Below, one piece after another: positions 6,881-37,563 of a DNA stretch of 42,170 nt. Source of the DNA: Candidatus Methylomirabilota bacterium. GTDB lineage: Bacteria > Methylomirabilota > Methylomirabilia > Rokubacteriales > CSP1-6. A program made the position numbers and the translations under genes. The notes beneath the pieces are model-generated. The model was given only the letters and a program-made list of their open reading frames with translations, searched no databases and was not told the origin of the DNA. The stretch's first letter is position 1; each line of letters starts with the position of its first letter. The DNA lies in assembly GCA_035249225.1 (NCBI GenBank), contig DATFGS010000306.1, positions 1-42,170 of the forward strand, written 5' to 3'.

Positions 6881-6953
6881 GGCCGCGCCCTCCGTGAGCC
6901 GTAGTAGCACACTCCGGTGGAACGGTCCACGCGAGCGCCTGTATCCTGGGAGC

Positions 6954-7178: not shown

Positions 7179-7186
7179 CCCCGCGG

Positions 7187-7396: not shown

Positions 7397-7414
7397 CGCG
7401 GGCGGGTCGCGCGC

Positions 7415-7570: not shown

Positions 7571-7601
7571 GGGGGTCTCCCGTTTCGAGTCAGCAGCGTG
7601 A

Positions 7602-7796
7602 TCAGCTCCCGCTCCAGATGTTGTCCGCGACTTTCCGGCCGTCCCGCTTCGCGGTGTACGCGACCGTCAAGCTCGTCCCGGGGCTGAGCCCGCCCGCAGT
7701 CTGCTTGCTCGTCAGGAAGATCTTGGTGCCGTTCTCGAGCACGATGTGGTCCTCGTGGCGCTCCCGGAGGATGCCGACGATGACGCCTCCCGCCAT
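7602..7796 (-). CDS. Small cytosolic hypothetical protein (64 aa)
   Basis: Internal ATG at 7796 in ORF 7602..7853. Product begins MAGGVIVGILRERHEDHIVLENGTKIFL. High GC3. First gene of a three-microprotein operon. Confidence 0.6.
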   Translation of the reverse strand: MAGGVIVGILRERHEDHIVLENGTKIFLTSKQTAGGLSPGTSLTVAYTAKRDGRKVADNIWSGS

Positions 7797-7896
7797 GGGA
7801 ACCTCTGTCGTACCGTGAGAGGGAGGGCAAGACCAGATTCCGCGGGACCGCAACGCCGAACGCGTCGAACCAGGAGATCCCGCGGGAGGCGATCAA

Positions 7897-7905
7897 ACTG
7901 TAGCA
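7897..7905 (-). promoter_or_regulatory. Extended -10 promoter candidate (TGcTACAGT) for the microprotein operon
   Basis: The minus strand reads TGCTACAGT, one of four TGCTAnnnT motifs found in intergenic DNA in this window. Confidence 0.35.
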
Positions 7906-23364: not shown

Positions 23365-24345
23365 ATGACCATTCGCATCGCCGCCATCGAGGTCGGGCAC
23401 TGGCACGCCGTGCACGACGCCGCCTATCTCCGCCATCTCACCGCGATGCCCGACGTGGCCCTGGTCGGCGTGCAGGACAGCGACGCCGCGCTGGCGAGGA
23501 AGCGCGCGGGGGAGGTGGGCGACCCGCCCGCCTTCACCGACTACCCCCGGATGCTGGCGGAGACGAAGCCCGACTTCGTGCTGGGCCTGGGACGCCACCG
23601 GCAGATGGCGAAGATCGCCCACGACCTGCTCGACCGCGGCCTGCCGTTCATGATGGAGAAGCCGATGGGGATCGACGCCGCCGAGGTCCAATCCATCGCG
23701 GAGAAGGCGGCGCGCCTGAAGGGCTACGCGGCGGTGCCGCTCTTCCAGCGCTACCAGCCCTTCGCGGTCCGGGCCCGCCAGCTCCTGGCCGAGGGGCGCT
23801 TCGGCCCCGTGTCCCACATCTACGTCCGCCTCAACCGGCCCGCGCCCGCGCGCTACCCGGCCTGGGACTCGGCGTGGATGCTCGACCCGGCGGAGGCGGG
23901 CGGCGGCTGCCTCCGCAACCTGGGCTCGCACGGGCTCGACATGTTCCTGTACCTGACCGGCGAGGACGCGCGGGTGACCGGCGCCCAGATCAGCAGCCGC
24001 GCCCACGGCCAGCGCGTGGAGGACTACGCCTCGGTGCTGCTGCGCTCCACCACCGGGATCCTGGGCACCGTCGAGGTCGGCAACGGCTTCCCGCGGGTAG
24101 GCACCGACGGCGAGTGGAAGATCGCCGGGCGCGACGCCATCCTGACCCTGAAGGACGGCGTGCTGAAGCTGGCCGCCGCCCAGGGCGACGAGACCACGCC
24201 GGCCCCGGACAGCGACGCGCGCTATTTCGGAGCGATCCGCGACATCCTGGAATCCTGGCAGCGCGGCGCGGCGCCCCCGATCAGCGTGCACGACTGCCTG
24301 CGCGCGGTGCAGCTCATCGACCAGGCCTACGCGCTCGCCAGGTAA
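23365..24345 (+). CDS. Gfo/Idh/MocA family oxidoreductase
   Basis: ATG at 23365 after GGAGGA. EKP motif (FMMEKPMG). 326 aa. Confidence 0.82.
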   Translation: MTIRIAAIEVGHWHAVHDAAYLRHLTAMPDVALVGVQDSDAALARKRAGEVGDPPAFTDYPRMLAETKPDFVLGLGRHRQMAKIAHDLLDRGLPFMMEKPMGIDAAEVQSIAEKAARLKGYAAVPLFQRYQPFAVRARQLLAEGRFGPVSHIYVRLNRPAPARYPAWDSAWMLDPAEAGGGCLRNLGSHGLDMFLYLTGEDARVTGAQISSRAHGQRVEDYASVLLRSTTGILGTVEVGNGFPRVGTDGEWKIAGRDAILTLKDGVLKLAAAQGDETTPAPDSDARYFGAIRDILESWQRGAAPPISVHDCLRAVQLIDQAYALAR

Positions 24346-24415
24346 GAATCTCCGGGCTCACGCATCCGGAACCCGTCGGCCTGCATCCCAGTTGATGTAG
24401 CGGACGGAGGGCGGA

Positions 24416-24616
24416 ATGACGACCCGGAAGATTCTACTCGGCGTGTTGCTCCTGGCGGCCACCTGCGGCCTCTTCAGCGCGTGCAGCACCATGCCGCAGG
24501 GCCCGACCTACACCGACGCCGAGCTCAAGGCGATGTGCGAGCGCCGGGGCGGCTGGTGGCGGGGCGAGCTGATCGCGGGCTTCTGCGAGTTCCAGTCGGC
24601 CTCACTGGCGCCCTGA
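24416..24616 (+). CDS. Small lipoprotein (66 aa)
   Basis: Signal peptide with lipobox LFSAC. RBS GGAGGG. Two further Cys residues. Confidence 0.65.
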   Translation: MTTRKILLGVLLLAATCGLFSACSTMPQGPTYTDAELKAMCERRGGWWRGELIAGFCEFQSASLAP

Positions 24617-25459
24617 GCGGCCTCGTCTCCGGCGCCGCCCCCGCGGCGGGCCGGCGGGGCCGAGCACCCGCATGATCTCCGCCGCCATCAGTCGGCCCCG
24701 GAGGGCAAGCGCCCGCTTCGCCGTCACCGCCCGCGCGGCCGCCGGCCAGCCGAAGTAGCCGAGGCCTCCCGGCGCGATCTCCTCGAAGCGCTTCGCGCCC
24801 TTCCGCAGCGCCGCGCGAAAGTCCACCCACACCGGCGGCAGCCGCCGCGCGATCGCGCGGCGCACCAGGTCCGGGCGGCGCGCCATGACCAGCGCGGTCT
24901 CGAGCTCGCCGGAGTGCCACTCGCCCTCCGGGTTCGGGCTGCGCGACAGCCTGAGCACGCGCGGGTCGAGCATGGCCGCCATGCTCCGCGCCTCCGGGCT
25001 GAAGCCGGCGAACGCGATGCGCAGCCGTCTCCCCCCAGGCCGGCGGGCGGCGGGGCGCGTGAGCGCCCGCTTCGCGTCGGCCATCGCCCGCACGTGGGCC
25101 GGATCGGCCTGGTAGCTCGCGAGCACGAAGCGGTGGAAGCCGTGGCGGATCAGGCTGCCGATCACGTCCACGATCACGCGCCGGAGCGTCGCGCGGGAGA
25201 GCGAGACGGTGCCGGGCCACGTCTCGGCGAGCGGGCTCGCGCCGTACGGAAGCGACGGGGCCAGGATCACGCGATAGCCCGCGCGCTCGAGATGAGGCGT
25301 CACATGACGGGCCAGCTCCTCCGCGCCGAGCCAGTCCACCAGCAGCGGCAGGTGCGGACCGTGCTGCTCGACCGCGCCCAGGGGGAGGATCACGACGGCC
25401 CGCTGGTCCCGGGCCAGGCGCGCGGCCTCAGGCGAGGCGCACTCGGCCAGGCGGATCAC
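24602..25459 (-). CDS. Creatininase-family cyclic amidohydrolase
   Basis: GTG start at 25459. ILPLGAVEQHGPHLPLLVD is the creatininase-family metal-binding motif. Confidence 0.85.
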   Translation of the reverse strand: MIRLAECASPEAARLARDQRAVVILPLGAVEQHGPHLPLLVDWLGAEELARHVTPHLERAGYRVILAPSLPYGASPLAETWPGTVSLSRATLRRVIVDVIGSLIRHGFHRFVLASYQADPAHVRAMADAKRALTRPAARRPGGRRLRIAFAGFSPEARSMAAMLDPRVLRLSRSPNPEGEWHSGELETALVMARRPDLVRRAIARRLPPVWVDFRAALRKGAKRFEEIAPGGLGYFGWPAAARAVTAKRALALRGRLMAAEIMRVLGPAGPPRGRRRRRGRSGRQ

Positions 25460-25460
25460 G

Positions 25461-25490
25461 CCGGAATGTCGTGATGCAAGACCCGACCCC
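25461..25490 (+). repeat. Long-form copy C of the CGGAATG..AAGACCYGACCCC element
   Basis: CCGGAATGTCGTGATGCAAGACCCGACCCC fills the 34 nt gap between the aminotransferase stop and the creatininase start. Confidence 0.7.
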
Positions 25491-25493
25491 CGA

Positions 25494-26813
25494 TCAGGGG
25501 CGTGTCTTCTTCCTCGGCAGCACCTTGAGCGCGTCCTCGCAGGCCTCGAGCGTGCGGGCCACGTCGGCGTCCGTGTGGGCGAGCGACATGTACATCTTCT
25601 GGGTGTTCTTCACCACGCCGCGCTTGATCAGCTCGGTGGTGAAGGTGCGGGCCAGGGCGCCGTCGGCCTTCTGCAGCGACCGATAGTCGGTCACCGGCTC
25701 GCCGGTGAAGAGGACGTCGAAGAGCACGGGCTCGCCTACCACCTGGGCGGGCAGGCCCGACTTCCGGGCCAGCTCGGCGAGGCCGGCCATCAGGCGGCCG
25801 CCGGTGCCGTGGAACCGCTCGTACGCGCCGGGCTTGCGCAGCTCGGCCAGGGTCGCCAGGCCCGCGACGGCCGCGATCGGATTGCCGTTGAGCGTGCCGG
25901 ATTGCGAGATGAAGTCGCCCTTGCCGTCCTGTCCGGGATCGAAGGGCCGCATCAGGTCGGCGGAGGCGCAGACCGCGGCGAGGGGGAAGCCGCCGCCCAC
26001 GATCTTGCCGACGCAGGCGATGTCCGGCACCACGCCGTAGTACTGCTGGGCGCCGCCGTAGGCCAGGCGGAAGCCGGTGACGACCTCGTCGAAGACCAGC
26101 AGGATGCCGTGGCGCCGCGTGATCTCGCGCAGGCCCTGCAGGAACCCGGGCTGAGGCGGGATCAGCCGCTGGAACGGCTCGATGATCACCGCGGCCAGCT
26201 CGTCGGCGTGGGTGGCCACGATGCCCTCGACCGTCGCCAGGTCGTTGAAGGGCGCGATCAGCACCTCGGCCTCCAGCGAGTGCGGGATGCCGGACGAGTC
26301 CGGGACCGGCGCGGGGAAGGCCTTGGGCGAGCGCGGGGTCGAGCTCATCATCGAGTAGTCGTGGGCGCCGTGGTAGCCGCCCTCGAACTTGAGGATCTTG
26401 TCGCGCTGCCGCGCGGTGCGGGCCACGCGCAGGGCGAAGAAGGTGGCCTCCGAGCCCGTCGAGGTGAAGCGCACCTGCTCGGCGCACGGCACCGCGCGGC
26501 AGATCTCCTCGGCCAGCTCGATGATCGGCTCGGTCACCATGAAGTAGGTGGTGCCGCTCTCGAGCTGCGCGCGCACCGCGGCCACCACCGCGGGATGGGC
26601 GTGGCCCAGCACCATCGGCCCCGAGGCCATCACGTAGTCGATGTACTCGCGGCCGCTCACGTCGTAGATCTTCGAGCCCTTGCCGTGCTTGACCACGAAG
26701 CCCACGTCGTCGGCGTAGCGGGAGGTGCCGAGCACGCCGCCGGGCAGGCGCTGGCGGGCGCGGTCGAGGAGCTTGGTCTCTGCGGCGGAGCGGGTCGTGA
26801 TCGGGTCGGCCAT
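25494..26813 (-). CDS. Class III (omega) aminotransferase, glutamate-1-semialdehyde aminomutase-like
   Basis: ATG at 26813. TSTGSEATFFALRVAR, and a PLP lysine context CVGKIVGGGFPL similar to HemL. Confidence 0.88.
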   Translation of the reverse strand: MADPITTRSAAETKLLDRARQRLPGGVLGTSRYADDVGFVVKHGKGSKIYDVSGREYIDYVMASGPMVLGHAHPAVVAAVRAQLESGTTYFMVTEPIIELAEEICRAVPCAEQVRFTSTGSEATFFALRVARTARQRDKILKFEGGYHGAHDYSMMSSTPRSPKAFPAPVPDSSGIPHSLEAEVLIAPFNDLATVEGIVATHADELAAVIIEPFQRLIPPQPGFLQGLREITRRHGILLVFDEVVTGFRLAYGGAQQYYGVVPDIACVGKIVGGGFPLAAVCASADLMRPFDPGQDGKGDFISQSGTLNGNPIAAVAGLATLAELRKPGAYERFHGTGGRLMAGLAELARKSGLPAQVVGEPVLFDVLFTGEPVTDYRSLQKADGALARTFTTELIKRGVVKNTQKMYMSLAHTDADVARTLEACEDALKVLPRKKTRP

Positions 26814-26824
26814 GGTGGATGTCC

Positions 26825-27358
26825 TCAGGACGCGGTCGGTGTCGAGAAGCGCTGTGCGTTGCCCATGTTCGGCCAGGCGAAGGCCTGCACGTTGGCCATC
26901 ATCTGGCGGATGTGGTTGCGGTCGTGGAACACCCACTCGTGGAGCAGATCGCCCACGGTCAGCCGGCCGACCTTGGGATGCTGCCCGCCCCGGGCCAGGT
27001 CCGCCCGCGACAGCCCGGCCACCTGCGCGACGCTGGCGCTGCGAAGCTGCAGGAACTCGTGATAGAGCGTGGGCCAGTCCCGCGCGCAGTCCTTCCGGGC
27101 GCGGGCGACCGCCTCCTGGTCCCAGCCCTCTAGGGCGGCCCGCTCCTCGCTCTTGAGAATGATGCGGATCCGCCCCGAGAAGCCGCGCCTCTCGCACTCG
27201 ATGAGGTGGCCGAGCACTTCCTTCGCGCACCACTCTCCGTCCGCCGGGTGGAACTCGAGCACCGAGGCCGGCAGCGCGGCCAGCTCTGCGTGGATCGTCG
27301 CGGCCGCGGACTGCAGCAGCGCCGCGACGGCCGATGGTTCCAGCGGCTCGGGGGTCAT
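26825..27358 (-). CDS. DinB family protein
   Basis: ATG at 27358. EVLGHLIECE and HDRNHIRQM are DinB-type His ligands in a four-helix-bundle pattern. Confidence 0.8.
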   Translation of the reverse strand: MTPEPLEPSAVAALLQSAAATIHAELAALPASVLEFHPADGEWCAKEVLGHLIECERRGFSGRIRIILKSEERAALEGWDQEAVARARKDCARDWPTLYHEFLQLRSASVAQVAGLSRADLARGGQHPKVGRLTVGDLLHEWVFHDRNHIRQMMANVQAFAWPNMGNAQRFSTPTAS

Positions 27359-27378
27359 GTTCGCGCCGGGGGAAAGGC

Positions 27379-27921
27379 CTAGTCGCGAATCACGAGCTCG
27401 GCGACGGGGACGCCGGATCGAAAGCGGCGGACCAGGTCGTCGGGCTCGAACTCGACGCCGATCGGGTTGCGGTCGAAGGCGGGCGAGAGCATCCACGCCT
27501 GCCCCTCCTCCGCGGTGGCGAAGTTGTCGATCTGCAGCTCGACGCGGTTGCCGTCGGGGTCGACGTAGTACATGGAGGTCGTCGGCCCGTGGTTGATCGA
27601 GCGGAACGGGCGGATGCCCCTCGCGGCGAGCCGCTCGTAGTTGCCGAGCAGCTCGCCCATGGAGCCGAACGTGAACGCGACGTGATGGAGGCCCGGCTGA
27701 TCGGTGGGCCGGTACCGGAGGTCGCCGCCCGTCAGGTCCCGGGCGGCGAGGGGGCCGAAATCGATGAAGGCCACGCGGTGATGCTCGTCGTCGTAGGTGA
27801 CGAAGCAGAGCTGGGCGTTCTCGTAGATGACGCGCCCGTCCAGCACCGTGCAGTACCAGTCCCGCATCGCGGGCAGGCGGTTGGTCTGGAAGACAAGGTG
27901 CGCGAGCTTGGTCGGCGGCAT
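27379..27921 (-). CDS. VOC family protein (extradiol dioxygenase/glyoxalase-like, single module)
   Basis: LAHLVFQT...HHVAF...YYVDPDGNRVEL carries VOC metal ligands. Resembles small BphC-type dioxygenases. Confidence 0.8.
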   Translation of the reverse strand: MPPTKLAHLVFQTNRLPAMRDWYCTVLDGRVIYENAQLCFVTYDDEHHRVAFIDFGPLAARDLTGGDLRYRPTDQPGLHHVAFTFGSMGELLGNYERLAARGIRPFRSINHGPTTSMYYVDPDGNRVELQIDNFATAEEGQAWMLSPAFDRNPIGVEFEPDDLVRRFRSGVPVAELVIRD

Positions 27922-27931
27922 CGTCGCCTCC

Positions 27932-28549
27932 CTACTGCAGCGGCGAGAACGCCGAGGGCATCACGATCTTGCTCGATTGCGCGATCAGCTCGTCGCCCCC
28001 GCCCGCCGGCGGCCAGATGCCCGCCTTGCGCGCCTGCTCCCGGACGGCCAGCCGCTGGTCCATGCTCTTGTAGCCCCAGATGTGGACGAACCGGTTCGCG
28101 GCGCCGAACTCCACCCCGGCCGCCAGCACCAGCGGCGAGAGCTTGGTCCGCTCCGCGATGGCGCCCTCCCAGCGCTTCGCGACGCCGGGCAGCGACCCGG
28201 CCATGAGGCTGTAGCGCCGGATCTCGAAGATCGGGCCCAGCGTGCCCGGCGTGATGTCGGGAACGAAGGAGAGCGGGGTCAGGATCTCCACGTCCTGGTC
28301 GACGACGAACTCGCGGATCTTGGGCGGCCAGTTGGCGTCCTTGGACGCCTCGGCGCGGATGCGGGCGCGCTCGGCGAGGTCCTTGTAGCCCCACACGTGG
28401 ATGATCTCGTTGAGCGGGCCGATCTCGGTGTGCCAGAAAGCGGTGAGCGGCGAGTACTTCTTGCGGTACTCGTAGGCCTCGGCGTAGCGCTTCTCCACCT
28501 CGGCCAGGCTGCGGGGCTTGAGCGTGTAGGTCCGGAACTCGTAGATCAT
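27932..28549 (-). CDS. NIPSNAP family protein (two NIPSNAP repeats)
   Basis: ATG at 28549 after GAGGGAG. MIYEFRTYTLKP and IFEIRRYSL are the starts of two NIPSNAP domains. Confidence 0.85.
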   Translation of the reverse strand: MIYEFRTYTLKPRSLAEVEKRYAEAYEYRKKYSPLTAFWHTEIGPLNEIIHVWGYKDLAERARIRAEASKDANWPPKIREFVVDQDVEILTPLSFVPDITPGTLGPIFEIRRYSLMAGSLPGVAKRWEGAIAERTKLSPLVLAAGVEFGAANRFVHIWGYKSMDQRLAVREQARKAGIWPPAGGGDELIAQSSKIVMPSAFSPLQ

Positions 28550-28662
28550 CGCCGATCTCCCTCGTGCCTTGGCTGTGCTCGTTGCGCGTCCGGGATCGCC
28601 GCCACCACGGCGGCACCCGCGAAGTCTGCGCCCCAATTCCGGAGACGTCAAGCCGCGGTCGG

Positions 28663-28671
28663 TGCTAGGGT
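28663..28671 (+). promoter_or_regulatory. Extended -10 promoter candidate (TGcTAGGGT), near-leaderless LLM transcript
   Basis: TGCTAGGGT ends 10 nt before the ATG at 28682. There is no SD in between. Confidence 0.35.
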
Positions 28672-28681
28672 GTGGCCGGTC

Positions 28682-29695
28682 ATGACCCCCGCCACCGCGC
28701 GGTTCGGCATCGTGCTGCTCCCGGAGTCGCTCGGCGATTTCGGCGAGCTCTGCCGCGAGACCGAGGCCAGCGGCTTCGACTGGCTCGGCGTCGCCGACTC
28801 GCAGTCGGTCTTCCGCGAGCTCTACGTCGCGCTCACGCTGGCCGCCCTCAGTACCCGCCGCCTGAGGCTGGGGCCGCTCGTCACCAATCCCCTGACCCGG
28901 CACCTGGTGGTGACCGCGAGCGCCATCGCCAGCGTGGACGAGCTGGCGGGCGGGCGCGCGGTCCTCGGCCTGGGCTCGGGCGACAGCGCGATCTACACGA
29001 TCGGCGCGCCGCCCGCCACCCTGGCCGGCCTCGAGGACTCGATCGCGACGCTGGGCCGCCTGACCACCGGCGAGACGGTGGATCGCGGCGGACGGCCCTG
29101 GCGCGTGCATCGCGCGACGCGCCGCGTCCCGATCTACCTGGCCGCCGAGGGCCCGCGCACGCTCGAGCTGGCCGGCCGGGTGGCCGACGGGGTCATCTGC
29201 GGTCTCGGCCTCACCCCGGAGGTGATCGCGCTCTCGCTCGCCGCGATCGAGCGCGGCGCGCGCGCGGCGGGCCGCACGCTCGACGACATCGACGTCTGGT
29301 GGTTCGCCAAGACCAGCCTGGCCGACACGCGGGCCGCCGCGATCGAGCCGATCAAGATGGCGCTGGCCGCGAGCGCCAACCACGCCTTCCGCTTCACGCT
29401 CGAGGGCAAGGGCGTGCCGCCCGACCTGCACGAGAAGATCCGCGCGCTCCAGCGCGAGTACAACGCGCACCACCACGAGATCCCCGGCGCCGCCAACGCG
29501 AGCCTGCCCGACCGGTGGGACCTCACCGAGTTCCTGGCCGATCGCTTCGCGGTCGCGGGCAGCCCCGCCGACTGCGTGGCCCAGCTCCGGCGCGCGATGG
29601 GGGCGGGGGCGCGCCAGTTCATGATCACCGGCTTCGTGCCGGATCCGCGCGCCTTCGTACGCCGGTGGATGAAGGAGGTCGCCGGCGCTCTTTGA
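28682..29695 (+). CDS. LLM-class (luciferase-like) flavin/F420-dependent oxidoreductase
   Basis: ATG at 28682 (alternative GTG at 28670). GFDWLGVADSQ, LGPLVTNP and LGLGSGD are typical of F420-dependent LLM proteins. Confidence 0.85.
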   Translation: MTPATARFGIVLLPESLGDFGELCRETEASGFDWLGVADSQSVFRELYVALTLAALSTRRLRLGPLVTNPLTRHLVVTASAIASVDELAGGRAVLGLGSGDSAIYTIGAPPATLAGLEDSIATLGRLTTGETVDRGGRPWRVHRATRRVPIYLAAEGPRTLELAGRVADGVICGLGLTPEVIALSLAAIERGARAAGRTLDDIDVWWFAKTSLADTRAAAIEPIKMALAASANHAFRFTLEGKGVPPDLHEKIRALQREYNAHHHEIPGAANASLPDRWDLTEFLADRFAVAGSPADCVAQLRRAMGAGARQFMITGFVPDPRAFVRRWMKEVAGAL

Positions 29696-30945
29696 TCCTC
29701 GCCGCCTTCCGCGTCCGCAGCTTCCGCTTCCAGTGGCCCGCCGACCTCCTCACCTCCTGGGCGTTCGAGATGGAGACGCTCGTCCTGGGCTGGTACGTGA
29801 TGGTGCAGACCGGCTCGGTGCTGCTGCTCACCCTCTTCGGCTCCGCGCAGTTCCTCGGCACCCTCGCCGCCCCCATGTTCGGCGTGCTCGGCGACCGGGT
29901 GGGCGGACGCCTCATGCTCTGCGCGATGCGCGCGATCTACGCCGCGCTCGCGCTGGCCGTCATGGTGCTGGCCTTCACCGGCCGGCTGACGCCCGCCTGG
30001 GCCATCGCGCTCGCCGCGCTGAACGGCGTCGTCCGCCCGAACGACCTCGTGATGCGCAATGCCCTGATCGGCGAGACCATCCCGCCCGACCACCTGATGG
30101 GCGCGCTCGGCATGTCGCGCGCCACCATGGACTCCGCGCGGGTCGGCGGGGCGCTGGCGGGCGCCGGGCTGTCCACGATGCTGGGCATCGGGCTCACCTA
30201 CGTGTTCGTGACGTGCTTCTACCTGGCGAGCCTGGCGCTCACGTTCGGGGTGGCGCGGGCGCGGCCGGTACCGGATTTCGCGGCCCCCTCACCCTACCCT
30301 CTCCCCCTCTCGGGGGAGAGGGATTGGGGATGGCGGGAGCTCCAGGACGGGGTCGCGCACATCCTGAGCCGGCCGCAGCTCCTGGCGCCGATGTGGCTCG
30401 CGTTCCTGATCAACCTCACCGCGTACCCCGCCTCGGGCGGCCTGCTGCCCTACATCGCGCAGCGCGTGTACCAGGTGGACGCGACGGGCCTCGGCTGGCT
30501 CGCGGCCGCGTTCTCGTTCGGAGCGCTGCTCGCCTCGATCGCGATGGTGGTCACCGGCGGGCCCGCCCACCCGGAGCGCTACACGCTCGTGCACACCGTG
30601 CTCTGGTACGCGCTGCTGCTTGTCTTCGCGTACGTGCCGAACCTGGGAGGCGGCCTGCTCGTGCTGCTGGTCACCGGCTTCGTGCAGAGCGTGGCGATGA
30701 TCTCGATGACCGCGACGCTGCTCACCGCCTCGGGCCCCGGCTTCCGCGCCCGGGTGATGGGGGTGCGCTCGCTCTGCGTCTACGGCCTGCCGATCGGGCT
30801 CATCGCCTCCGGCGCGCTCATCGAGCGGATCGGCTACCCGCTCACCATCACCGTGATGGCGGCGCTGGGGCTCGTCTTCACCGCGCTCATCGCGGCCCGG
30901 TGGCGCGCGGCCATGTGGGGCCGGGCTCGCGCGGTCGCGGCGTGA
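29692..30945 (+). CDS. MFS transporter
   Basis: TTG at 29692 overlaps the LLM stop (TTGA), 13 nt after GAAGGAGG. 12-TM-like profile. The central loop contains a REP-derived insert. Confidence 0.82.
   Translation: MILAAFRVRSFRFQWPADLLTSWAFEMETLVLGWYVMVQTGSVLLLTLFGSAQFLGTLAAPMFGVLGDRVGGRLMLCAMRAIYAALALAVMVLAFTGRLTPAWAIALAALNGVVRPNDLVMRNALIGETIPPDHLMGALGMSRATMDSARVGGALAGAGLSTMLGIGLTYVFVTCFYLASLALTFGVARARPVPDFAAPSPYPLPLSGERDWGWRELQDGVAHILSRPQLLAPMWLAFLINLTAYPASGGLLPYIAQRVYQVDATGLGWLAAAFSFGALLASIAMVVTGGPAHPERYTLVHTVLWYALLLVFAYVPNLGGGLLVLLVTGFVQSVAMISMTATLLTASGPGFRARVMGVRSLCVYGLPIGLIASGALIERIGYPLTITVMAALGLVFTALIAARWRAAMWGRARAVAA
30284..30330 (+). repeat. REP-like palindromic element embedded in frame in the MFS gene
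   Basis: CCCCCTCACCCTA precedes the stem. CCCTCTCCCCC (30297-30307) pairs perfectly with GGGGGAGAGGG (30312-30322) across a 4 nt loop. Translated as APSPYPLPLSGERDWG. Confidence 0.8.
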
Positions 30946-30947
30946 AG

Positions 30948-30990
30948 CCCCTCACCCTGCCCTCTCCCCTGAGGGGAGAGGGAGATTTGC
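30948..30990 (+). repeat. REP-like palindromic element just 3' of the MFS stop (terminator-like)
   Basis: CCCCTCACCCTG precedes the stem. CCCTCTCCCC (30960-30969) pairs perfectly with GGGGAGAGGG (30973-30982) across a 3 nt loop. It shares the 5' flank with the intragenic copy. Confidence 0.8.
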
Positions 30991-31034
30991 GGTACACTTC
31001 GGCGCACCGGTAACCCAGCGCGGGGAGGCGACTG

Positions 31035-32300
31035 ATGAAATTCACCTGGTTCAACCTGATGCCCTGGCCGTACCTTCCCGACGACTTCCGCGAGCAGAAC
31101 CGCTCGGTCTGGGTGGACATCCCGAGCAAGCTCTACGATCCGAAGAAGGGCCACTTCGTCTACCACCAGTACATGGACCAGCTCGAGTACGCGGAGTCGC
31201 TCGGCTTCGACGGCATCGGGTGCAACGAGCACCACCAGAACGGCTACGGGCTCATGCCCTCCCCGAACCTGATCGCGGCGGGCCTCGCCCGCCGGACCAG
31301 TCGCGCTGCGATTTGTGTGATCGGCAACTCGATCGCGGGCTACAACCCGCCGATCCGGGTGGCCGAGGAGTTCGCGATGCTCGACGTCATCTCGGGCGGG
31401 CGCCTCGTGGCGGGCTTCCCGGTCGGCACCCCGATGGACACCAACTTCTGCTACGGCCAGATCCCCGCGCTGACCCGCGACAAGTACAAGGAAGCGCACG
31501 ACATGATCATGAAGGCGTGGGCGGAGGACGAGCCCTTCGCCTTCGACGGCAAGTACAACCAGCTCCGCTGGGTGAACTGCTGGCCCAAGCCGATCCAGAA
31601 GCCGCACCCGCCCATCTACATCCCGGGGGGCGGCTCGATCGAGACGTGGGACTTCTGCCTCGACTACGACTACAACTACTCGTATCTGTCGTTCTACGGC
31701 TACCTGCGCGGCAAGTCCCTGCTCGAGGGCTACTGGGACCGGGTGGCCAAGCGCGGCAAGGACGACTCGCCCTTCCGCGCCGCCTTCGCCCAGATCATCT
31801 GCGTGGCCGACACCGACGCGGAGGCCGAGGAGCTCTACGCCGAGCACTGCCTCTACTTCTTCAACCGGTGCCTGCACGTGTTCCCGCCCTTCGCGGACCC
31901 GCCGGGCTACCGCACCGTGAACACCATCAAGTACGGCGCGCTCTCCCAGCTCCGCCTCGAGGCGCAGAAGCTGATGGCCAACCTCACCTGGAAGCAGCTC
32001 GTGGAGGAGCGCTTCATCATCGCGGGCAGCCCGGAGACGGTGCGCCAGCAGCTCGAGGAGTGCATCACCGGCCTGCGGATCGGCCACCTCTTCTGCCTGC
32101 TCCACACCGGCAACATGCCGGACTGGAAGACGCGGCACTCCACCAAGCTCTTCGCCGAGAAGGTCATGCCGCACCTGCGCAACCTCTGGCCCGAATGGAA
32201 GCACGACGACCGCTGGTGGATCCACCCGATGGAGGACCGCCTCCGTCCCGAGGAGATGCAGCCCGGCGCGGAGAAGCCCGGGCAGGAGTGGCCGGCATGA
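31035..32300 (+). CDS. LLM-class flavin-dependent oxidoreductase (about 420 aa subfamily)
   Basis: ATG at 31035 after GGGGAGG. LGFDGIGCNEHHQ and PIRVAEEFAMLDVISGGRL are luciferase-like monooxygenase motifs. Confidence 0.85.
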   Translation: MKFTWFNLMPWPYLPDDFREQNRSVWVDIPSKLYDPKKGHFVYHQYMDQLEYAESLGFDGIGCNEHHQNGYGLMPSPNLIAAGLARRTSRAAICVIGNSIAGYNPPIRVAEEFAMLDVISGGRLVAGFPVGTPMDTNFCYGQIPALTRDKYKEAHDMIMKAWAEDEPFAFDGKYNQLRWVNCWPKPIQKPHPPIYIPGGGSIETWDFCLDYDYNYSYLSFYGYLRGKSLLEGYWDRVAKRGKDDSPFRAAFAQIICVADTDAEAEELYAEHCLYFFNRCLHVFPPFADPPGYRTVNTIKYGALSQLRLEAQKLMANLTWKQLVEERFIIAGSPETVRQQLEECITGLRIGHLFCLLHTGNMPDWKTRHSTKLFAEKVMPHLRNLWPEWKHDDRWWIHPMEDRLRPEEMQPGAEKPGQEWPA

Positions 32301-33079
32301 AGGCGCACACCGTCGAGACGAAGCGCGGCGCGCGCTGCCGCGTGCTCGAGGGCGGCAGCGGCGTGCCGCTCGTGTTCCTCCACGGGGCGGGCGGCCTCCT
32401 CGCCGACAACCCCTTCCTCGACCAGCTCGCCGCGCGCTATCACGTCTTCGCGCCCGAGCTGCCGGGCTACGGCGACTCCACCGGGGACGAGCTCCTCGAG
32501 GACATGCTCGACTTCACGCTGCACGGCTGGGACGTGGTCGCCGCGCTCGGGCTCACCCGTCCGCACCTGGTCGGCCACTCGATGGGCGGCATGATCGCGG
32601 CCGAGATGGCGGCGGTCGCGCCGCGGGACCTCGACCGGCTCGTGCTCGTCGGCGCGGCCGGGCTCTGGATCGAGGAGCATCCGATCCCCGACATCTTCGC
32701 GATGCTCCCCGGGCAGCTCGTCGAGCTGCTCTTCCAGGATCCGGTCGCGGGCATGGCGCTCCTCACCGGCGGCGCGGATTTCTCCGACATGGAGGTCTTC
32801 AAGACCTACTACCTCGCCCAGCAGCGGCGGCTCGCGATGGCGGGCAAGATCCTGTTCCCGATCCCGAACCGCCGCGTCTCGAAGCGGCTCTACCGCGTGA
32901 CCGCCCGGACCCTCGTGCTCTGGGGCGGCGCGGACCGGCTGATCGTGCCGGCCTACGCCGAGCGCTGGGGCCGGCTGATCCCGGGCGCGACGGTGGAGCG
33001 CATTCCCGACGCCGGGCACATGCTGCCGTACGAGCAGCCGACCGCCTTCGTCGGCGCGGTCTCCCGCTTCCTCGGATGA
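32297..33079 (+). CDS. Alpha/beta hydrolase (meta-cleavage-product hydrolase-like)
   Basis: ATGA overlap with the LLM stop. HGAGG oxyanion region, nucleophile elbow GHSMGG, and a C-terminal DAGH containing the catalytic His. Confidence 0.85.
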   Translation: MKAHTVETKRGARCRVLEGGSGVPLVFLHGAGGLLADNPFLDQLAARYHVFAPELPGYGDSTGDELLEDMLDFTLHGWDVVAALGLTRPHLVGHSMGGMIAAEMAAVAPRDLDRLVLVGAAGLWIEEHPIPDIFAMLPGQLVELLFQDPVAGMALLTGGADFSDMEVFKTYYLAQQRRLAMAGKILFPIPNRRVSKRLYRVTARTLVLWGGADRLIVPAYAERWGRLIPGATVERIPDAGHMLPYEQPTAFVGAVSRFLG

Positions 33080-35379
33080 CCGAGCCCCAGGGCGACGGCT
33101 GGGTCGGCAAGCCGCTCAAGCGCCGGGAGGATCATCGCCTCCTCATCGGCGCGGGCGCCTACGTGGACGACCTGGCGCCGCCGGGGTGTCTGCACGTCGC
33201 CCTGCTCCGCTCCCCGCACGCCCGCGCCCGCGTGGTCGGCCTCGACGTGGAGGCGGCGCGGGGCGCCCCCGGCGTCCGCGCGGTGGTCACCGGCAAGGAC
33301 GTGGCGCATCTCGCGCCGATGCCGGTGAACCGCCTCGTCCCGGACATGCGCGTGCCGCCCCATCCGATCATCGCGGAGAGCCAGGTCCACGCGGTGGGCA
33401 TGCCGGTCGCCGCGGTGGTCGCCGAGGACGTCTACGCGGCCCACGACGCGCTCGACCTGATCGGCGTGGAGTACGAGCCCCTGCCCGCCCTGCCCCAGCC
33501 GGAGGGCGCCCTCGCCGCGGACGCCCCGCTCCTCTTCTCGGGCATCGACGGCAACCGCGCGCTCACCCGGATCGTTCGGGAAGGTGACGTTCATCGGGCC
33601 TTCGCGGCGGCGGCCCACGTGGTCCCGCTGCGGGTGGCCCAGAACCGCATCTCGGCGGTGGCGATGGAGCCGCGCTCGGTGCTGGCGAGCTACGACCGCA
33701 CGACCGGCGACCTCACGATGTGGGTGTCCTGCCAGGCCCCGTTCCGCATCCGCGGCGAGGTCGCGCGGCTGCTCGAGCTGCCCGAGGGCCGCGTGCGCGT
33801 GATCGCGCCCGACGTGGGCGGCGGGTTCGGCGTGAAGACCGGCCCCTACCGCGAGGACGTGCTGCTCGCCTGGCTCGCCCGCGAGCTGGGCCGCCCGGTG
33901 AAGTGGGTCGCGACGCGCCGCGAGGACCAGGTCACCACCAACCAGGCGCGCGGCTCGGTCTGCGAGGGCGAGCTGGCGCTCGACGCGGGCGGGCGCATCA
34001 CCGGCCTCCGCGCCCGGGTCACCGCGCCCCTCGGCGCGCACCTCATGAACGCGGCGGCGGGCTCCCCGTGGAACCACGTGCGCTGCATGCCCGGGGCCTA
34101 CGTGATCCCCGCGTGCGACATCACGGTCCACGGCGCGCTCACCACCACCGCGCCGGTCTCCGCCTACCGCGGCGCGGGCCGGCCGGAGGCCTGCTTCTTC
34201 ATCGAGCGCCTGATCGACACCGCCGCGCGCGCGATGCGGCTCGATCCGGCCGAGCTGCGGCGCCGCAACCTGATTCCGCCCGACCGCTTCCCGTTCAAGA
34301 CCATCACCGGCCAGGTCTACGACTCGGGGGACTACCCGCAGGCGCTGGACCGCGCGCTCCGGGCCGCCGACTACGACGGGATGCGGCGCCGCCAGGCCGA
34401 GCGGCGCGCGCGGGGCGAGATCGTCGGCGTCGGGCTCGTCTCCTACGTGGAGCCCTGCGCGCTCGGCTGGGAGAGCGGGTCCATCCGCGTGGAGCGGTCG
34501 GGCAAGGTCACCGCGATCACCGGCTCGAGCGCGCACGGCCAGGGGCACGAGACCACCTTCGCGCAGGTCGTCGCCGATCACCTGGGCGTCACCCCGGACG
34601 AAGTCACGGTGCTCCACGGCGACACGCGTTCGGGCCCGGAGGGCTTCGGCACCTTCGGGAGCCGGAGCGTGGCCCTGGGCGGCGGCGCGCTCGTGCGCAC
34701 CTCGGTCGAGGTGCGCGACAAGGGCCGCCGCATCGCGGCGCGGATGCTCGAGGCGGCGGTCGAGGACATCGTGCCGGTGCGGGGTGGCTTCCAGGTCGCG
34801 GGGGTGCCGCAGAAGCGCGTGGCCTGGAAGGAGGTGGCCGCCGCGGCCTGGGCGGGCGGCGGCGCCCTGCCCCCGGGCGACACGCCGGGGCTCGAGGCCA
34901 CCACCTACTTCCAGCCCGGCGGCGAGGCGTGGAGCTCGGGCGCGGTGGTCTGCGGGCTCTCGATCGAGCGGGAGACCGGCGAGCTGCGCCTCGAGCAGCT
35001 CGTGTGGGTGGACGACGCGGGGACGATCATCAACCCGCTGCTGGCGGAGGGACAGCTCCACGGGTCGCTGGCGCAGGGCCTGGGCCAGACCCTGATGGAG
35101 GCGATCGTCTACGACCCCGACGGCCAGTGCCTGACCAGCACCCTGATGGACTACGCGATCCCGCGGGCGGCCGACGTGCCGCCGGTGCTGATCGAGAAGA
35201 TGCACTCCGCCTCGCCGCTCAACCCGCTCGGGGCCAAGGGGCTGGGCGAGGCCGGGTGCATCGCGATCCCGCCCGCGGTCGTGAACGCGGCGGTGGACGC
35301 GCTCGCGCCACTCGGCGTCGGCCACCTCGACATGCCGCTGACCCCCGAGCGCCTGCGGGCCGCGCTCACCGGGCGCTAG
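33076..35379 (+). CDS. Xanthine dehydrogenase/CoxL-family molybdopterin-binding large subunit (form II-like)
   Basis: ATGA overlap with the hydrolase stop. 767 aa. The active-site loop AYRGAGR (34162-34182) is the form II CoxL-like variant. No adjacent small or medium subunit genes. Confidence 0.88.
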   Translation: MTEPQGDGWVGKPLKRREDHRLLIGAGAYVDDLAPPGCLHVALLRSPHARARVVGLDVEAARGAPGVRAVVTGKDVAHLAPMPVNRLVPDMRVPPHPIIAESQVHAVGMPVAAVVAEDVYAAHDALDLIGVEYEPLPALPQPEGALAADAPLLFSGIDGNRALTRIVREGDVHRAFAAAAHVVPLRVAQNRISAVAMEPRSVLASYDRTTGDLTMWVSCQAPFRIRGEVARLLELPEGRVRVIAPDVGGGFGVKTGPYREDVLLAWLARELGRPVKWVATRREDQVTTNQARGSVCEGELALDAGGRITGLRARVTAPLGAHLMNAAAGSPWNHVRCMPGAYVIPACDITVHGALTTTAPVSAYRGAGRPEACFFIERLIDTAARAMRLDPAELRRRNLIPPDRFPFKTITGQVYDSGDYPQALDRALRAADYDGMRRRQAERRARGEIVGVGLVSYVEPCALGWESGSIRVERSGKVTAITGSSAHGQGHETTFAQVVADHLGVTPDEVTVLHGDTRSGPEGFGTFGSRSVALGGGALVRTSVEVRDKGRRIAARMLEAAVEDIVPVRGGFQVAGVPQKRVAWKEVAAAAWAGGGALPPGDTPGLEATTYFQPGGEAWSSGAVVCGLSIERETGELRLEQLVWVDDAGTIINPLLAEGQLHGSLAQGLGQTLMEAIVYDPDGQCLTSTLMDYAIPRAADVPPVLIEKMHSASPLNPLGAKGLGEAGCIAIPPAVVNAAVDALAPLGVGHLDMPLTPERLRAALTGR

Positions 35380-35920
35380 CGAACCGCCGCTGCACCACCG
35401 CCGGGTACCGGCGGCTGAACCACACCGCGGCCGCGAAGGCGGCGACCGAGGCCGCCACGTCCACCCAGATCGGAATCGCCGCCACGTACTCCGCCGCCGC
35501 GTCGGCCGCGACCAGCACCGCGAAGGCGGCCGCCCACACCGTGGTGATCAGGCGATTGGTGGTGTGGAACACGGGCAGGGCCCAGACCGGCTCGGGGACC
35601 CGCTCGCGCGCGTACTGCAGCGTGAACGGCCGGCCGATGGCCAGCGAGACCACCGCGATCGCGAGCAGGCCGGTGTCCACCGCGAGCCGCACCGTGGCCA
35701 CCGTCCAGGCCGGGGCGGCCAGCAATGTGTACGCGGTGAGCGCGCCGAACACCACGAGGCTGCCGACCTCGAGGATCTTGAGCGACTCGCCGCGCCGCAC
35801 CATGCGGAAGCACAGCACCAGCGACACGGCGACCGCGGCCACCAGGCCGGCCAGCGGCGAGACGAGGCGCATCAGCACGAAGAAGGCCACGAAGGGCGAG
35901 AGGCTGAGCAGGATGCTCAT
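35366..35920 (-). CDS. Integral membrane protein of unknown function (184 aa)
   Basis: ATG at 35920 overlaps the tetR stop (ATGA). Five to six hydrophobic helices. Overlaps the 3' end of the CoxL-like gene by 14 nt. Confidence 0.7.
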   Translation of the reverse strand: MSILLSLSPFVAFFVLMRLVSPLAGLVAAVAVSLVLCFRMVRRGESLKILEVGSLVVFGALTAYTLLAAPAWTVATVRLAVDTGLLAIAVVSLAIGRPFTLQYARERVPEPVWALPVFHTTNRLITTVWAAAFAVLVAADAAAEYVAAIPIWVDVAASVAAFAAAVWFSRRYPAVVQRRFASAR

Positions 35921-36543
35921 GGCGTGCCTTTCGGCGAGGCGACGCCCGATCGCGCGCCCGCCACGAGCAGCCGCATCGCCTCCTGCTGGATGGTCCGGAA
36001 GTCCGGGGTCTCGGGCAGCTTGCCGGCCAGGTGCAGCACGACGAGCCCGTGCATGGTGGCCCAGAACACGTAGCCCAGGAGCTGCGCGTCGCCCGCGAAG
36101 ATGCCCGCCTCGACCAGGGCCTCGAGCGCCGCGCTGATCATCTGGCGCGCCCGGGCGCTCGCGCGGACCAGCTCCGGGTAGCGATCCGGGTGCGGCTGCG
36201 AGAGATCGAACATCAGACGGTACGCGTCGGGGTCGCCGAGCGCGAAGCGGATGTAGGCCTCGCCCATCGCCTGGCCGCCCGCGCGCAGATCGCCGGCCGT
36301 CTTCCGGGCCGCGTCCTCGAGCGCGCTCGCGAAGCGGTCGAACGCGGCCGCGCGCACCGCGGCGAGGATCTCCTCCTTGTTGCGGAAGTAGCGGTAGGGC
36401 GTCATCGGGCTGCAGCCCAGCGCGTCGGCGAGCTGCCGCATGCTGACCCCCTCCACCCCGTCCTTGGCGAAGCGCTTCTGGGCCACCGCGCACAGCCGCG
36501 CGCGGAACGCGTCGACGTCGGCCCGCGACAGGTTCCTGGGCAT
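35917..36543 (-). CDS. TetR/AcrR family transcriptional regulator
   Basis: The N-terminal HTH GVEGVSMRQLADALGCSPMTPYRYFRNKEEIL is a classic TetR signature. Confidence 0.9.
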   Translation of the reverse strand: MPRNLSRADVDAFRARLCAVAQKRFAKDGVEGVSMRQLADALGCSPMTPYRYFRNKEEILAAVRAAAFDRFASALEDAARKTAGDLRAGGQAMGEAYIRFALGDPDAYRLMFDLSQPHPDRYPELVRASARARQMISAALEALVEAGIFAGDAQLLGYVFWATMHGLVVLHLAGKLPETPDFRTIQQEAMRLLVAGARSGVASPKGTP

Positions 36544-36546
36544 GGG

Positions 36547-37488: not shown

Positions 37489-37516
37489 GTCGGCCTCCTT
37501 GGATAGACACCGTACA

Positions 37517-37546
37517 TTTACATCGTAAACAACGTCAAGCTTATTT
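37517..37546 (+). promoter_or_regulatory. AT-rich divergent promoter with palindrome TTTACatcGTAAA (candidate TetR operator)
   Basis: TTTAC (37517-37521), ATC, then GTAAA (37525-37529). The plus strand reads TTTACA-N18-TTATTT. It is the only markedly AT-rich stretch in the window. Confidence 0.4.
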
Positions 37547-37563
37547 TCGGAGGGAGACGACCC

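Follow-up and report, generated by a model that had tools for sequence, protein, structure and literature searches.

Ten closely packed genes on a Rokubacteria chromosome raise the question of whether they encode one pathway or several. The first-pass annotation had read them as together resembling a route for the breakdown of an N-heterocycle or lactam. In the window, the whole 42,170-nucleotide stretch of DNA that was analysed, fresh gene calls and a GC3 frame plot gave identical gene coordinates, which agree with those called independently on near-identical public contigs (L001). The minus-strand unit begins with a tandem-NIPSNAP gene (27932-28549, two PF07978 stretches) and continues with a glyoxalase/VOC gene (27379-27921), a DinB_2 gene (26825-27358, PF12867, Pfam E 2e-16), a class III aminotransferase gene (AT3, Aminotran_3, 25494-26813, E 5e-67) and, last, a creatininase-family gene (24602-25459, PF02633, E 1e-43), with gaps of 10, 20, 11 and 34 nt. 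Across a divergent gap of 132 nt (28550-28681) lies the plus-strand pair of LLM1 (Bac_luciferase, 28682-29695) and an MFS transporter gene (29692-30945, MFS_1 and MFS_3), joined by a TTGA overlap at 29692-29695. The third unit, also on the plus strand, comprises LLM2 (Bac_luciferase, 31035-32300), an alpha/beta hydrolase gene (ABH, Abhydrolase_1/6, 32297-33079) and a CoxL-type gene (Ald_Xan_dh_C, MoCoBD_1 and MoCoBD_2, 33076-35379), joined by ATGA overlaps at 32297-32300 and 33076-33079. The ten genes, their 10-34 nt spacings, the divergent gap and the overlaps are thus as first described, by re-called coordinates and direct reading of the sequence; Pfam returned the same family labels for all ten genes, and the division into three transcription units also stands. 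As the feature is a gene arrangement that is present as such, asking whether it is more than chance is not meaningful. None of the ten proteins reached the NCBIfam equivalog cut-off of a characterised enzyme, in line with the earlier statement that no named pathway matches.

The first-pass annotation had pointed to co-conservation across related genomes as a check on its proposal. An anchor search with the creatininase gene yielded 78 loci at species level, and further anchor searches were made with NIPSNAP and CoxL. The relatives are MAG contigs throughout, those of L011, L012 and L092 being error-prone long-read assemblies, so a few apparent gene losses could be assembly artefacts. Co-conservation largely failed: the AT3-creatininase pair, VOC, DinB, MFS, LLM2 and the hydrolase were each found displaced or missing. 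The full layout is repeated only in near-identical contigs and one species-level relative, and among the species-level relatives that keep the NIPSNAP/LLM1 core the five-gene minus-strand operon occurs only in L017. A 6.7-kb opposite-strand block (PALP, ABC peptide-type transporter, DAO and Aminotran_4) lies between DinB and AT3 in L011, L012 and L065, and an HNH gene takes this place in L089. AT3 is kept in L089/L090 with the creatininase gene absent in view, and L094 and L095 carry neither. L013 lacks VOC and DinB, L021 lacks VOC and L095 lacks MFS. Extra genes inserted in relatives are Amidohydro_2, VIT1 and TetR-Rieske genes; in L021, an Amidohydro_2 gene sits between AT3 and the creatininase gene. 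What persists is a core of NIPSNAP-VOC-DinB diverging from LLM1, with LLM2-hydrolase-CoxL-Amidohydro_2 within ~5 kb (L017, L021, L089, L094 and L095). That it persists in the clade despite many insertions and deletions may mean that linkage has been selected for, and thus that the genes share a function. The chemistry of the core, which is kept within a narrow clade, would suit the breakdown of aromatic or heteroaromatic compounds. Collectively, these results lead us to lean towards a lineage-specific variable zone of the Rokubacteria chromosome, made up of at least four small modules that are separately transcribed and inherited.

The NIPSNAP gene divergently faces LLM1 in L013, L017, L021, L089, L094 and L095, and in L013 it is preceded by an additional Amidohydro_2 gene. 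NIPSNAP homologues at 84% identity (L091) and 70% identity (L093 and P0235) lie in unrelated contexts. The VOC protein is a single domain of 180 aa, and its residues 109-128, INHGPTTSMYYVDPDGNRVE, match the extradiol ring-cleavage signature, which we take to be PROSITE PS00082. This signature was present in all orthologues examined, and partial in the frameshifted, incomplete copy of L092; H8, H80 and E128 are conserved in the full-length orthologues. The label "extradiol-type" therefore holds at the motif level. Among PDB structures, the protein weakly matched catechol 2,3-dioxygenase and homoprotocatechuate 2,3-dioxygenase, in both at the catalytic domain, and FosA. The DinB_2 protein had no NCBIfam match. 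On the other side of the divergent gap, the top NCBIfam matches of LLM1 were TIGR03842 and Mer, both under the cut-off, and its PDB match was Mer (E 4e-39), so that it resembles the F420-dependent Mer. Another LLM protein encoded in the window passes the cut-off of the F420-dependent family TIGR03619, and therefore the organism probably uses F420. The MFS protein has 12 TM segments, is efflux-like and is coupled to LLM1 through the TTGA overlap. When seven contigs, from six lineages and the window's own, were aligned, ~60 nt beside LLM1 proved conserved and the rest of the divergent gap variable, with a ~340-nt insert in L017. The conserved stretch holds a promoter/operator-like block (28621-28652, plus strand), after which comes a TAGGGT -10-like box, ~13 nt ahead of the ATG. 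The motif of this block is single in the window with up to three mismatches allowed.

The AT3 protein is glutamate-1-semialdehyde-aminomutase-like. It missed the hemL equivalog (387 vs 527 bits) and barely reached the cut-off of the subfamily PRK00062; in the PDB it came closest to GSAM, followed by omega- and beta-transaminases. The creatininase-like protein is a member of a Rokubacteria-restricted 'N/S-Y-Q-A-D' subfamily and fell under the NCBIfam creatininase and MftE equivalog cut-offs, with 78 bits for creatininase vs 235. It retains E31, H33, D42 and H182; the equivalent of the metal ligand His120 is an invariant Gln117, and that of Glu122 is Asp119. AT3 and the creatininase gene are spaced by 31-34 nt in the window and six species-level relatives, and these make up only 6 of the 78 species-level loci. 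The neighbours of the creatininase-like gene vary over the 78 loci, and the commonest neighbourhood is a TCA-cycle cluster. The opening of a cyclic amide by this protein is a weak step of the proposed route, the subfamily being found mostly in unrelated contexts.

Between MFS and LLM2 lies a perfect 11-bp inverted repeat (30960-30982, plus strand) with the hairpin arms CCCTCTCCCCT/AGGGGAGAGGG; relatives have various genes here, among them an opposite-strand VIT1. A TACACT -10-like box (30993-30998, plus strand) is located ~40 nt upstream of LLM2, and in six aligned lineages the sequence ...TACACT(C/T)CGG... is retained whatever precedes it. This predicted box suggests that LLM2 has an independent promoter. 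The LLM2 protein (421 aa) is a luciferase-like monooxygenase outside the characterised subfamilies, and its NCBIfam and PDB matches were all weak. The hydrolase gene has an ATGA overlap at both ends, and its product had distant matches only, to PcaD, HsaD, BphD and MenH in NCBIfam and to esterases in the PDB. In L013, LLM2 is a 123-aa remnant (aa 1-40 and 102-177 fused to the hydrolase C-terminus), ABH is deleted and CoxL is intact. The most constant companion of CoxL is an Amidohydro_2 gene (37564-38565, plus strand, PF04909, E 5e-42), which lies beyond the ten genes first described. In each of the four relatives viewed past CoxL (L013, L089, L094 and L095), an orthologue of it (80-87% identity) lies beside CoxL or the adjoining cassette, and the near-identical contig L001 places it as in the window. 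A cassette of a 184-aa membrane protein, a TetR regulator and a Rieske protein (35366-37488, minus strand, Pfam) parts it from CoxL in the window and also occurs in L094 and L095; in L013 and L089, which are without the TetR-Rieske cassette, Amidohydro_2 directly follows CoxL. CoxL homologues at 76-77% identity (L096 and L097) have unrelated neighbourhoods. In L096 the Amidohydro_2, AT3 and CoxL families nevertheless co-occur, in a different order, which counts against separate modules. [quoted passage not shown] Pfam found no CoxM/CoxS genes (Fer2_2, FAD_binding_5) in the window and none within 10 kb in L001, L013, L089, L094, L095, L096 or L097. That the subunit is an orphan is a weak point of the Mo-dependent ring hydroxylation expected of the route.

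In a single coordinated N-heterocycle route, CoxL would hydroxylate, the LLM proteins would oxygenate and VOC would cleave the ring. The hydrolases would break C-C or amide bonds, a lactam would be opened by the creatininase-like protein, AT3 would remove the amine and MFS would import the substrate. The enzyme classes named for it were right: every one is present and tightly packed, VOC bears the extradiol-type signature, and CoxL has quinoline 2-oxidoreductase and 6-hydroxypseudooxynicotine dehydrogenase among its closest solved relatives, beside mycobacterial CoxL. Furthermore, Amidohydro_2 genes, whose family includes (hetero)aromatic acid decarboxylases, recur near CoxL, and the seven-gene core is retained in five related lineages. 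However, each of the AT3-creatininase arm, MFS, VOC, DinB, LLM2 and the hydrolase is absent from, or out of place in, one or more close relatives, and single units are lost with the others retained, as seen in MAG contigs. LLM1 and LLM2 each have their own conserved promoter-like block, and an operator shared between units was not found. CoxL is without Fe-S/FAD partner genes in the window and the seven related contexts, MFS resembles exporters, and in the creatininase subfamily a metal ligand is changed and the commonest context is a TCA-cycle cluster. The lack of co-conservation speaks against one route for all ten genes, which we consider unlikely.

The MFS first proposed as a "dedicated transporter" most resembles exporters, and another reading is a detoxification and efflux island. 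Such an island would comprise VOC, DinB, LLM1 and MFS: an F420-type reductase, together with VOC or thiol-transferase-like proteins, would alter a toxic xenobiotic or antibiotic, and MFS would pump it out. The translationally coupled MFS is nearest in NCBIfam to the H+ antiporter (DHA-type) family, Tet(V) and EntS, F420 use is probable, the block upstream of LLM1 resembles a repressor operator overlapping a promoter, VOC weakly matches FosA-type resistance proteins, and DinB_2 has the fold of thiol S-transferases. Every transporter match was under its curated cut-off, however; no resistance-gene equivalogs were matched, the VOC signature is extradiol rather than FosA-like, and MFS is dispensable in L095. 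An island that is not catabolic seems improbable. There is a similarly small chance that AT3 and the creatininase-like gene make up a two-step module of their own that works apart from the other eight genes: a cyclic or linear amide would be hydrolysed and transamination would exchange the amine or keto group, so as to scavenge nitrogen and supply central metabolism. The adjacency of the pair argues for it, as does its separation from NIPSNAP-VOC-DinB in three of the six relatives (L011, L012 and L065), and in L011 the pair faces the amino-acid/peptide uptake and oxidation block. In L028, homologues of both genes (62-63% identity) lie 5 kb apart. In L096, an ABC transporter operon begins with an AT3 orthologue (86% identity) and diverges from hydantoinase/oxoprolinase A/B, unrelated ATP-dependent cyclic amidases that could be an analogous replacement. 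But ~60 of the 78 loci hold the creatininase-like gene without AT3, and this gene is the tightly coupled end gene of many operons (CoA-transferase, CoxMSL, and SdhB-like in the TCA cluster). L089 and L096 have AT3 but not this gene, the pair could have been inherited side by side from one ancestor, and Gln stands in for the canonical His metal ligand.

We therefore return to the several-module reading, since the relatives show small modules shuffled independently rather than one dedicated N-ring or lactam pathway. The chemistry of the modules, and which arrangement is ancestral, are what we infer from the gene families and neighbourhoods. Module 1 would consist of NIPSNAP, the single-domain extradiol-type VOC dioxygenase and DinB. 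Module 2, AT3 and the divergent creatininase-family hydrolase, would have been joined to it in the window's lineage; sister lineages have the 6.7-kb amino-acid/peptide uptake block or the HNH gene between the two. Module 3 would be the Mer-like LLM reductase, which probably depends on F420, with the efflux-type MFS to which it is translationally coupled. Module 4 would be LLM2, the alpha/beta hydrolase and the orphan form II CoxL, in an older arrangement that probably continued into Amidohydro_2. Each module most likely carries out one or two steps on, or the detoxification of, small aromatic, heteroaromatic or amine compounds, and the modules would not be successive steps of a single pathway. 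We judge the region to be an ordinary variable catabolic/detoxification region of an uncultured soil bacterium.

The N-heterocycle pathways that start with a molybdenum hydroxylase, namely nic for nicotinate, pic for picolinate, Qor for quinoline and Kdh/Ndh for nicotine, share with this region a large subunit of the xanthine-oxidase family, with Qor and Kdh among the nearest solved relatives, as well as an alpha/beta hydrolase, oxygenases and, near CoxL, an Amidohydro_2 gene; PicC-type decarboxylases are members of that family. In contrast, the enzymes of those pathways have two or three subunits encoded with Fe-S and FAD genes, of which there are none in the 42 kb and seven related contexts; the equivalog cut-offs of named pathway enzymes were not reached here, and gene content varies among close relatives. 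Meta-cleavage modules of aromatic catabolism combine an extradiol dioxygenase with a C-C hydrolase, to which the VOC signature and the distant relationship of the alpha/beta hydrolase to BphD, HsaD and PcaD correspond. Here, however, the dioxygenase consists of one 180-aa domain, the hydrolase is encoded 4 kb off in another transcription unit, and the dehydrogenase/hydratase/aldolase set is absent. The adjoining creatininase-family and class III aminotransferase genes are reminiscent of creatininase and of caprolactamase with 6-aminohexanoate aminotransferase, as is the pairing of the L096 AT3 orthologue with hydantoinase/oxoprolinase A/B. Unlike creatininase, the protein here scores far below the cut-off and has Gln in place of His at a metal ligand, and the subfamily occurs mostly elsewhere, including the TCA-cycle cluster. 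The AYRGAGR motif is shared with form II ('putative') CoxL, which is usually encoded in coxSLM-type operons, whereas this clade consistently has an orphan large subunit that is translationally coupled to the hydrolase and LLM.

All ten genes were reproduced at the coordinates of the first-pass annotation by a GC3 frame plot and our own gene calls (window G+C ~70%), and the same coordinates come from gene calling done independently on public contigs nearly identical to the window (L001). Every family label was confirmed by Pfam. The minus strand carries, in order of transcription, a tandem NIPSNAP gene (27932-28549), a Glyoxalase/VOC gene (27379-27921), a DinB_2 gene (26825-27358), the Aminotran_3 class III aminotransferase AT3 (25494-26813) and a Creatininase family gene (24602-25459). 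The plus strand carries two Bac_luciferase genes, LLM1 (28682-29695), followed by an MFS gene (29692-30945), and LLM2 (31035-32300), followed by an alpha/beta hydrolase (32297-33079) and CoxL, a three-domain large subunit of the xanthine-oxidase family (33076-35379). The minus-strand gaps of 10, 20, 11 and 34 nt, the 132-nt divergent gap and the TTGA/ATGA overlaps can be read directly from the sequence. None of the ten proteins reached an NCBIfam equivalog cut-off. The remaining genes of the window encode ABC transporters, dehydrogenases, amidohydrolases, more LLMs and regulators, and a scan of the whole window found no Rfam families or tRNAs. The coding signal is weak at 6900-7900; within this stretch, the end of a 74-aa ORF (6954-7175, plus strand) has a match to the HicA toxin that is below threshold (E 4e-4, 20.8 vs 27 bits). 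A 66-aa ORF to which Pfam gave no match (24416-24616) lies on the other strand from the creatininase-like gene and shares 15 nt with its 3' end; the ORF was called by independent gene callers in L001-L004 and recurs in L019-L021. Nearly all homologues of the creatininase-like protein, NIPSNAP and CoxL belong to MAGs of Candidatus Rokubacteria/Methylomirabilota or to soil metagenomes. Literature searches on NIPSNAP/VOC/LLM clusters and on orphan coxL gave no match specific to the arrangement in the window.

Related loci were collected in a scan of species-representative genomes with the creatininase-like gene as anchor (78 loci, 10-kb flanks) and compared with all window proteins using tblastn and clustering of called ORFs; NIPSNAP and CoxL served as further anchors. 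The relatives are all MAG or metagenome contigs, some with frameshifts (L011, L012, L092). Joint gain, loss or retention of the ten genes, by which their proposed membership of one N-heterocycle or lactam catabolic route could be checked, was not observed: all ten were in view only in L017, which repeats the window layout, and in near-identical contigs. AT3 adjoins the creatininase-like gene in only 6 of the 78 species-level loci. In L011, L012 and L065, AT3-creatininase and NIPSNAP-VOC-DinB lie on either side of an opposite-strand block; this block spans 6.7 kb in L011 and L012 (PALP, two permeases, SBP_bac_5, DAO and Aminotran_4), and only its DAO-Aminotran_4 end is visible on the short L065 contig. 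L013 is without VOC and DinB and has an additional Amidohydro_2 gene; its LLM2 is a 123-aa remnant (aa 1-40 and 102-177, fused to the hydrolase C-terminus), and its CoxL is full length. In L021, VOC is missing and AT3 is separated from the creatininase gene by an Amidohydro_2 gene. The L089/L090 locus (NIPSNAP 86% identical) reads Amidohydro_2-CoxL-hydrolase-LLM2, VIT1 and MFS-LLM1, divergent from NIPSNAP-VOC-DinB, which is followed by an HNH gene, AT3 and a PIN toxin, with no creatininase gene. In L094 (CoxL 84%), divergent NIPSNAP-VOC-DinB and LLM1 are kept, as are LLM2-hydrolase-CoxL, TetR-Rieske and Amidohydro_2; AT3 and the creatininase gene are absent here, the latter lying more than 20 kb off beside a CoA-transferase. 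L095 (CoxL 86%) has the same core as L094 without MFS, and its DinB is followed by an Amidohydro_2 gene. The neighbourhoods were unrelated in L091 and L093 (NIPSNAP 84% and 70%) and in L096 and L097 (CoxL 76-77%).

The best-supported interpretation is that the region is a plasticity zone collecting small modules. These would be four in number: NIPSNAP-VOC-DinB, AT3-creatininase-like, LLM1-MFS and LLM2-hydrolase-orphan CoxL(-Amidohydro_2). Five related lineages retain a seven-gene core in the face of numerous insertions and deletions, which is the main argument for cooperation among some of the modules and the reason why we regard the pathway idea as partly supported rather than refuted. Both the arrangement and the annotation are confirmed; it is the unification of all ten genes into a single pathway that the comparison does not support. 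Of the proposed route, the lactam-opening and deamination steps are the most loosely attached, and the N-heterocycle assumption rests on the orphan form II CoxL.

The NIPSNAP/LLM1 gap was aligned across seven contigs representing six lineages besides the window's own. A conserved block of ~60 nt adjoins LLM1, and the rest of the gap is variable, with an insert of ~340 nt in L017. Within this block, each of the six related lineages examined shares with the window a 32-nt element ahead of LLM1 (28621-28652, GAAGTCTGCGCCCCAATTCCGGAGACGTCAAG), which has imperfect dyad symmetry and a GACGTC core. It is followed by a TAGGGT box ~13 nt before the LLM1 ATG, and no Shine-Dalgarno site was found upstream of LLM1. 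As judged from these sequence features, the LLM1 transcript may be near-leaderless and repressor-controlled. The motif was found in the window only in its original copy and hence gives no evidence for a shared regulon. LLM2 is preceded by a TACACT box (30993-30998) and a GGAGG site, which are conserved whatever gene lies upstream. Just past the MFS stop is a perfect 11-bp inverted repeat (CCCTCTCCCCT/AGGGGAGAGGG, 30960-30982) that would form a hairpin; in relatives, this position is taken by the opposite-strand VIT1 gene. A near-identical inverted repeat with one mismatch per arm lies at 30297-30322 within the MFS coding region (~codon 202, roughly mid-protein), and the repeat may be a REP-like element. 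The divergent gaps (28540-28690 and 37480-37570) contained no inverted repeats. A sigma-70 scan of 24300-37700 gave no promoter-like sites, using a consensus that may not suit this phylum, and a terminator scan of the same interval gave terminator-like sites at chance level. The separate conserved blocks upstream of LLM1 and LLM2 argue against common regulation of the cluster through a shared operator or a single transcript, and together with the hairpin/VIT1 boundary they point to at least three promoters with no sign of a shared operator.

The creatininase-like protein matches PF02633 across its full length (residues 6-252, E 1.1e-43), reaches neither the creatininase equivalog TIGR04448 (77.6 vs 235 bits) nor the MftE equivalog TIGR03964 (86.2 vs 172 bits), and aligns to creatininase in the PDB at E 1e-11 only. 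Identity with mycofactocin MftE was considered and rejected, as the score is too low and mft genes are absent. Creatininase binds its binuclear metal centre through Glu34, His36, Asp45, His120 and Glu122 and has a catalytic His178 (P. putida numbering). The window protein retains E31, H33, D42 and H182, and has an invariant Gln117 at the position of His120 and Asp119 at that of Glu122, leaving the creatininase ligand set incomplete. The wider family has N-x-H-x-E/D, whereas the subfamily of the window has an invariant N/S-Y-Q-A-D (residues 113-122), a form limited to a few 50%-identity clusters. On this alignment, the subfamily carries Gln in place of the canonical His metal ligand. A tblastn search of 72,556 plasmids was uninformative, with identities of at most ~42% over partial lengths and at most 34% for matches covering more than 60% of the protein.

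Whichever operon the creatininase-like gene follows, it always closes that operon and is tightly coupled to it. Orthologues at 76-78% identity are preceded by an Amidohydro_2 gene and a double CoA-transferase III. For group II loci, we considered whether the 790-aa protein encoded ahead of the creatininase gene might be a CoxL paralogue, and rejected this because it is a double CoA-transferase III. In another related contig (L071:6235-10833), a 76%-identical creatininase-like gene directly follows a complete CoxM-CoxS-CoxL operon, the CoxL of which is a paralogue 41% identical to that of the window. In 13 Rokubacteria genomes (for example L042:9360-10777 and L043:9459-20073), a homologue with 56-71% identity overlaps an SdhB-like Fe-S gene at the stop codon of the latter and is followed by Mdh, fumarase alpha/beta, monomeric IDH, SdhA, SdhB and SucC, placing the creatininase-family gene within a TCA-cycle cluster; homologues at 56-68% may be orthologues or paralogues. 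Because of this location and the adjoining aminotransferases, the NYQAD subfamily could conceivably be a lactamase or amidase feeding a cyclised keto-acid amide back into central metabolism. The aminotransferase AT3 resembles glutamate-1-semialdehyde aminomutase, falling short of the hemL equivalog TIGR00713 (386.8 vs 527.3 bits) and just reaching the broad PRK00062 subfamily (399.5 vs 398); its solved relatives range from GSAM to omega- and beta-transaminases. An alternative to a ten-gene route, that amide opening and transamination form a free-standing module, is weakly supported by locus L096:13021-21876. There, an AT3 orthologue (86% identical) heads an SBP_bac_5 ABC transporter operon, and genes for hydantoinase/oxoprolinase A and B diverge from this operon. 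Within 8 kb there are also a CoxL of 77% identity and an Amidohydro_2 gene that is a copy, at 91% identity, of the one in L021.

The central genes may instead have a detoxification or efflux role. The MFS protein, first taken as the dedicated transporter of the pathway, looks like an exporter, its nearest families being an H+ antiporter, Tet(V) and EntS. LLM1 is Mer-like and below the cut-offs (TIGR03842 154.6 vs 295; Mer 154.2 vs 349), no NCBIfam model gives LLM2 more than 70 bits, and LLM2 and the alpha/beta hydrolase have weak relatives only. A third LLM (38985-39839) passes the curated cut-off of the F420-dependent TIGR03619 (258 vs 167 bits), suggesting that the organism uses coenzyme F420. 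The 'extradiol-type' label of the VOC protein is reasonable, given that residues 109-128 (INHGPTTSMYYVDPDGNRVE) match the extradiol signature, which we take to be [GNTIV]-x-H-x(5,7)-[LIVMF]-Y-x(2)-[DENTA]-P-x-[GP]-x(2,3)-E, and that this stretch is conserved in full-length orthologues together with H8, H80 and E128, the candidate His/His/Glu ligands. The common catechol and biphenyl extradiol enzymes have two domains and ~300 aa, whereas the window protein has one Pfam VOC domain in 180 aa, and the extradiol enzymes in the PDB align with it over their catalytic-domain part only. One-domain extradiol dioxygenases exist. A single-sequence AlphaFold2 model of the VOC protein was too low in confidence to use (mean pLDDT 32).

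Collectively, these results describe an ordinary variable catabolic or detoxification region encoding uncharacterised members of known families. The ten-gene pathway, though attractive, fails the comparison with relatives, and the region is of small importance, as a further variable cluster, in an uncultured soil phylum, of uncharacterised proteins from well-known enzyme families. For specialists, it may offer a Rokubacteria-specific creatininase-like subfamily with an altered metal site that lies within TCA-cycle clusters of many genomes, and a consistently orphan form II CoxL clade (coupled to hydrolase, LLM and Amidohydro_2) that could be a tractable entry to form II CoxL function.

CoxL contains Ald_Xan_dh_C, MoCoBD_1 and MoCoBD_2, the domains expected of a molybdenum-cofactor protein, and a GLGEAG motif near the C-terminus, in which Glu725 is presumably the catalytic Glu. 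It does not reach the form I CoxL equivalog TIGR02416 (575 vs 991 bits), and mycobacterial CoxL, 6-hydroxypseudooxynicotine dehydrogenase and quinoline 2-oxidoreductase, its closest solved relatives, have similar scores. [quoted passage not shown] No Fer2_2 or FAD_binding_5 proteins (CoxS, CoxM) were found among the ~45 genes of the 42-kb window, nor did any of seven contexts have CoxM/CoxS genes up to 10 kb from its CoxL orthologue. The most consistent neighbour of CoxL is the Amidohydro_2 gene at 37564-38565, beyond the span described in the first-pass annotation. Between the two, an opposite-strand cassette (35366-37488) encodes a 184-aa membrane protein, a TetR regulator (35917-36543) and a Rieske protein. 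L094 and L095 also carry this cassette, and L013 and L089 lack it; in the window, the membrane-protein gene and CoxL share 14 nt at their stops (35366-35379). We consider it unlikely that the translationally coupled LLM2-hydrolase-CoxL unit and the constant Amidohydro_2 constitute a new kind of molybdenum-hydroxylase pathway with a CoxL that has no dedicated Fe-S/FAD subunits. [quoted passage not shown] A xanthine-oxidase-family holoenzyme consists of large, [2Fe-2S] and FAD subunits, whereas the window CoxL is encoded with no such partner genes in the window; and where form I aerobic CO dehydrogenase has the loop AY(X)CSFR, the window CoxL has the form II loop instead.
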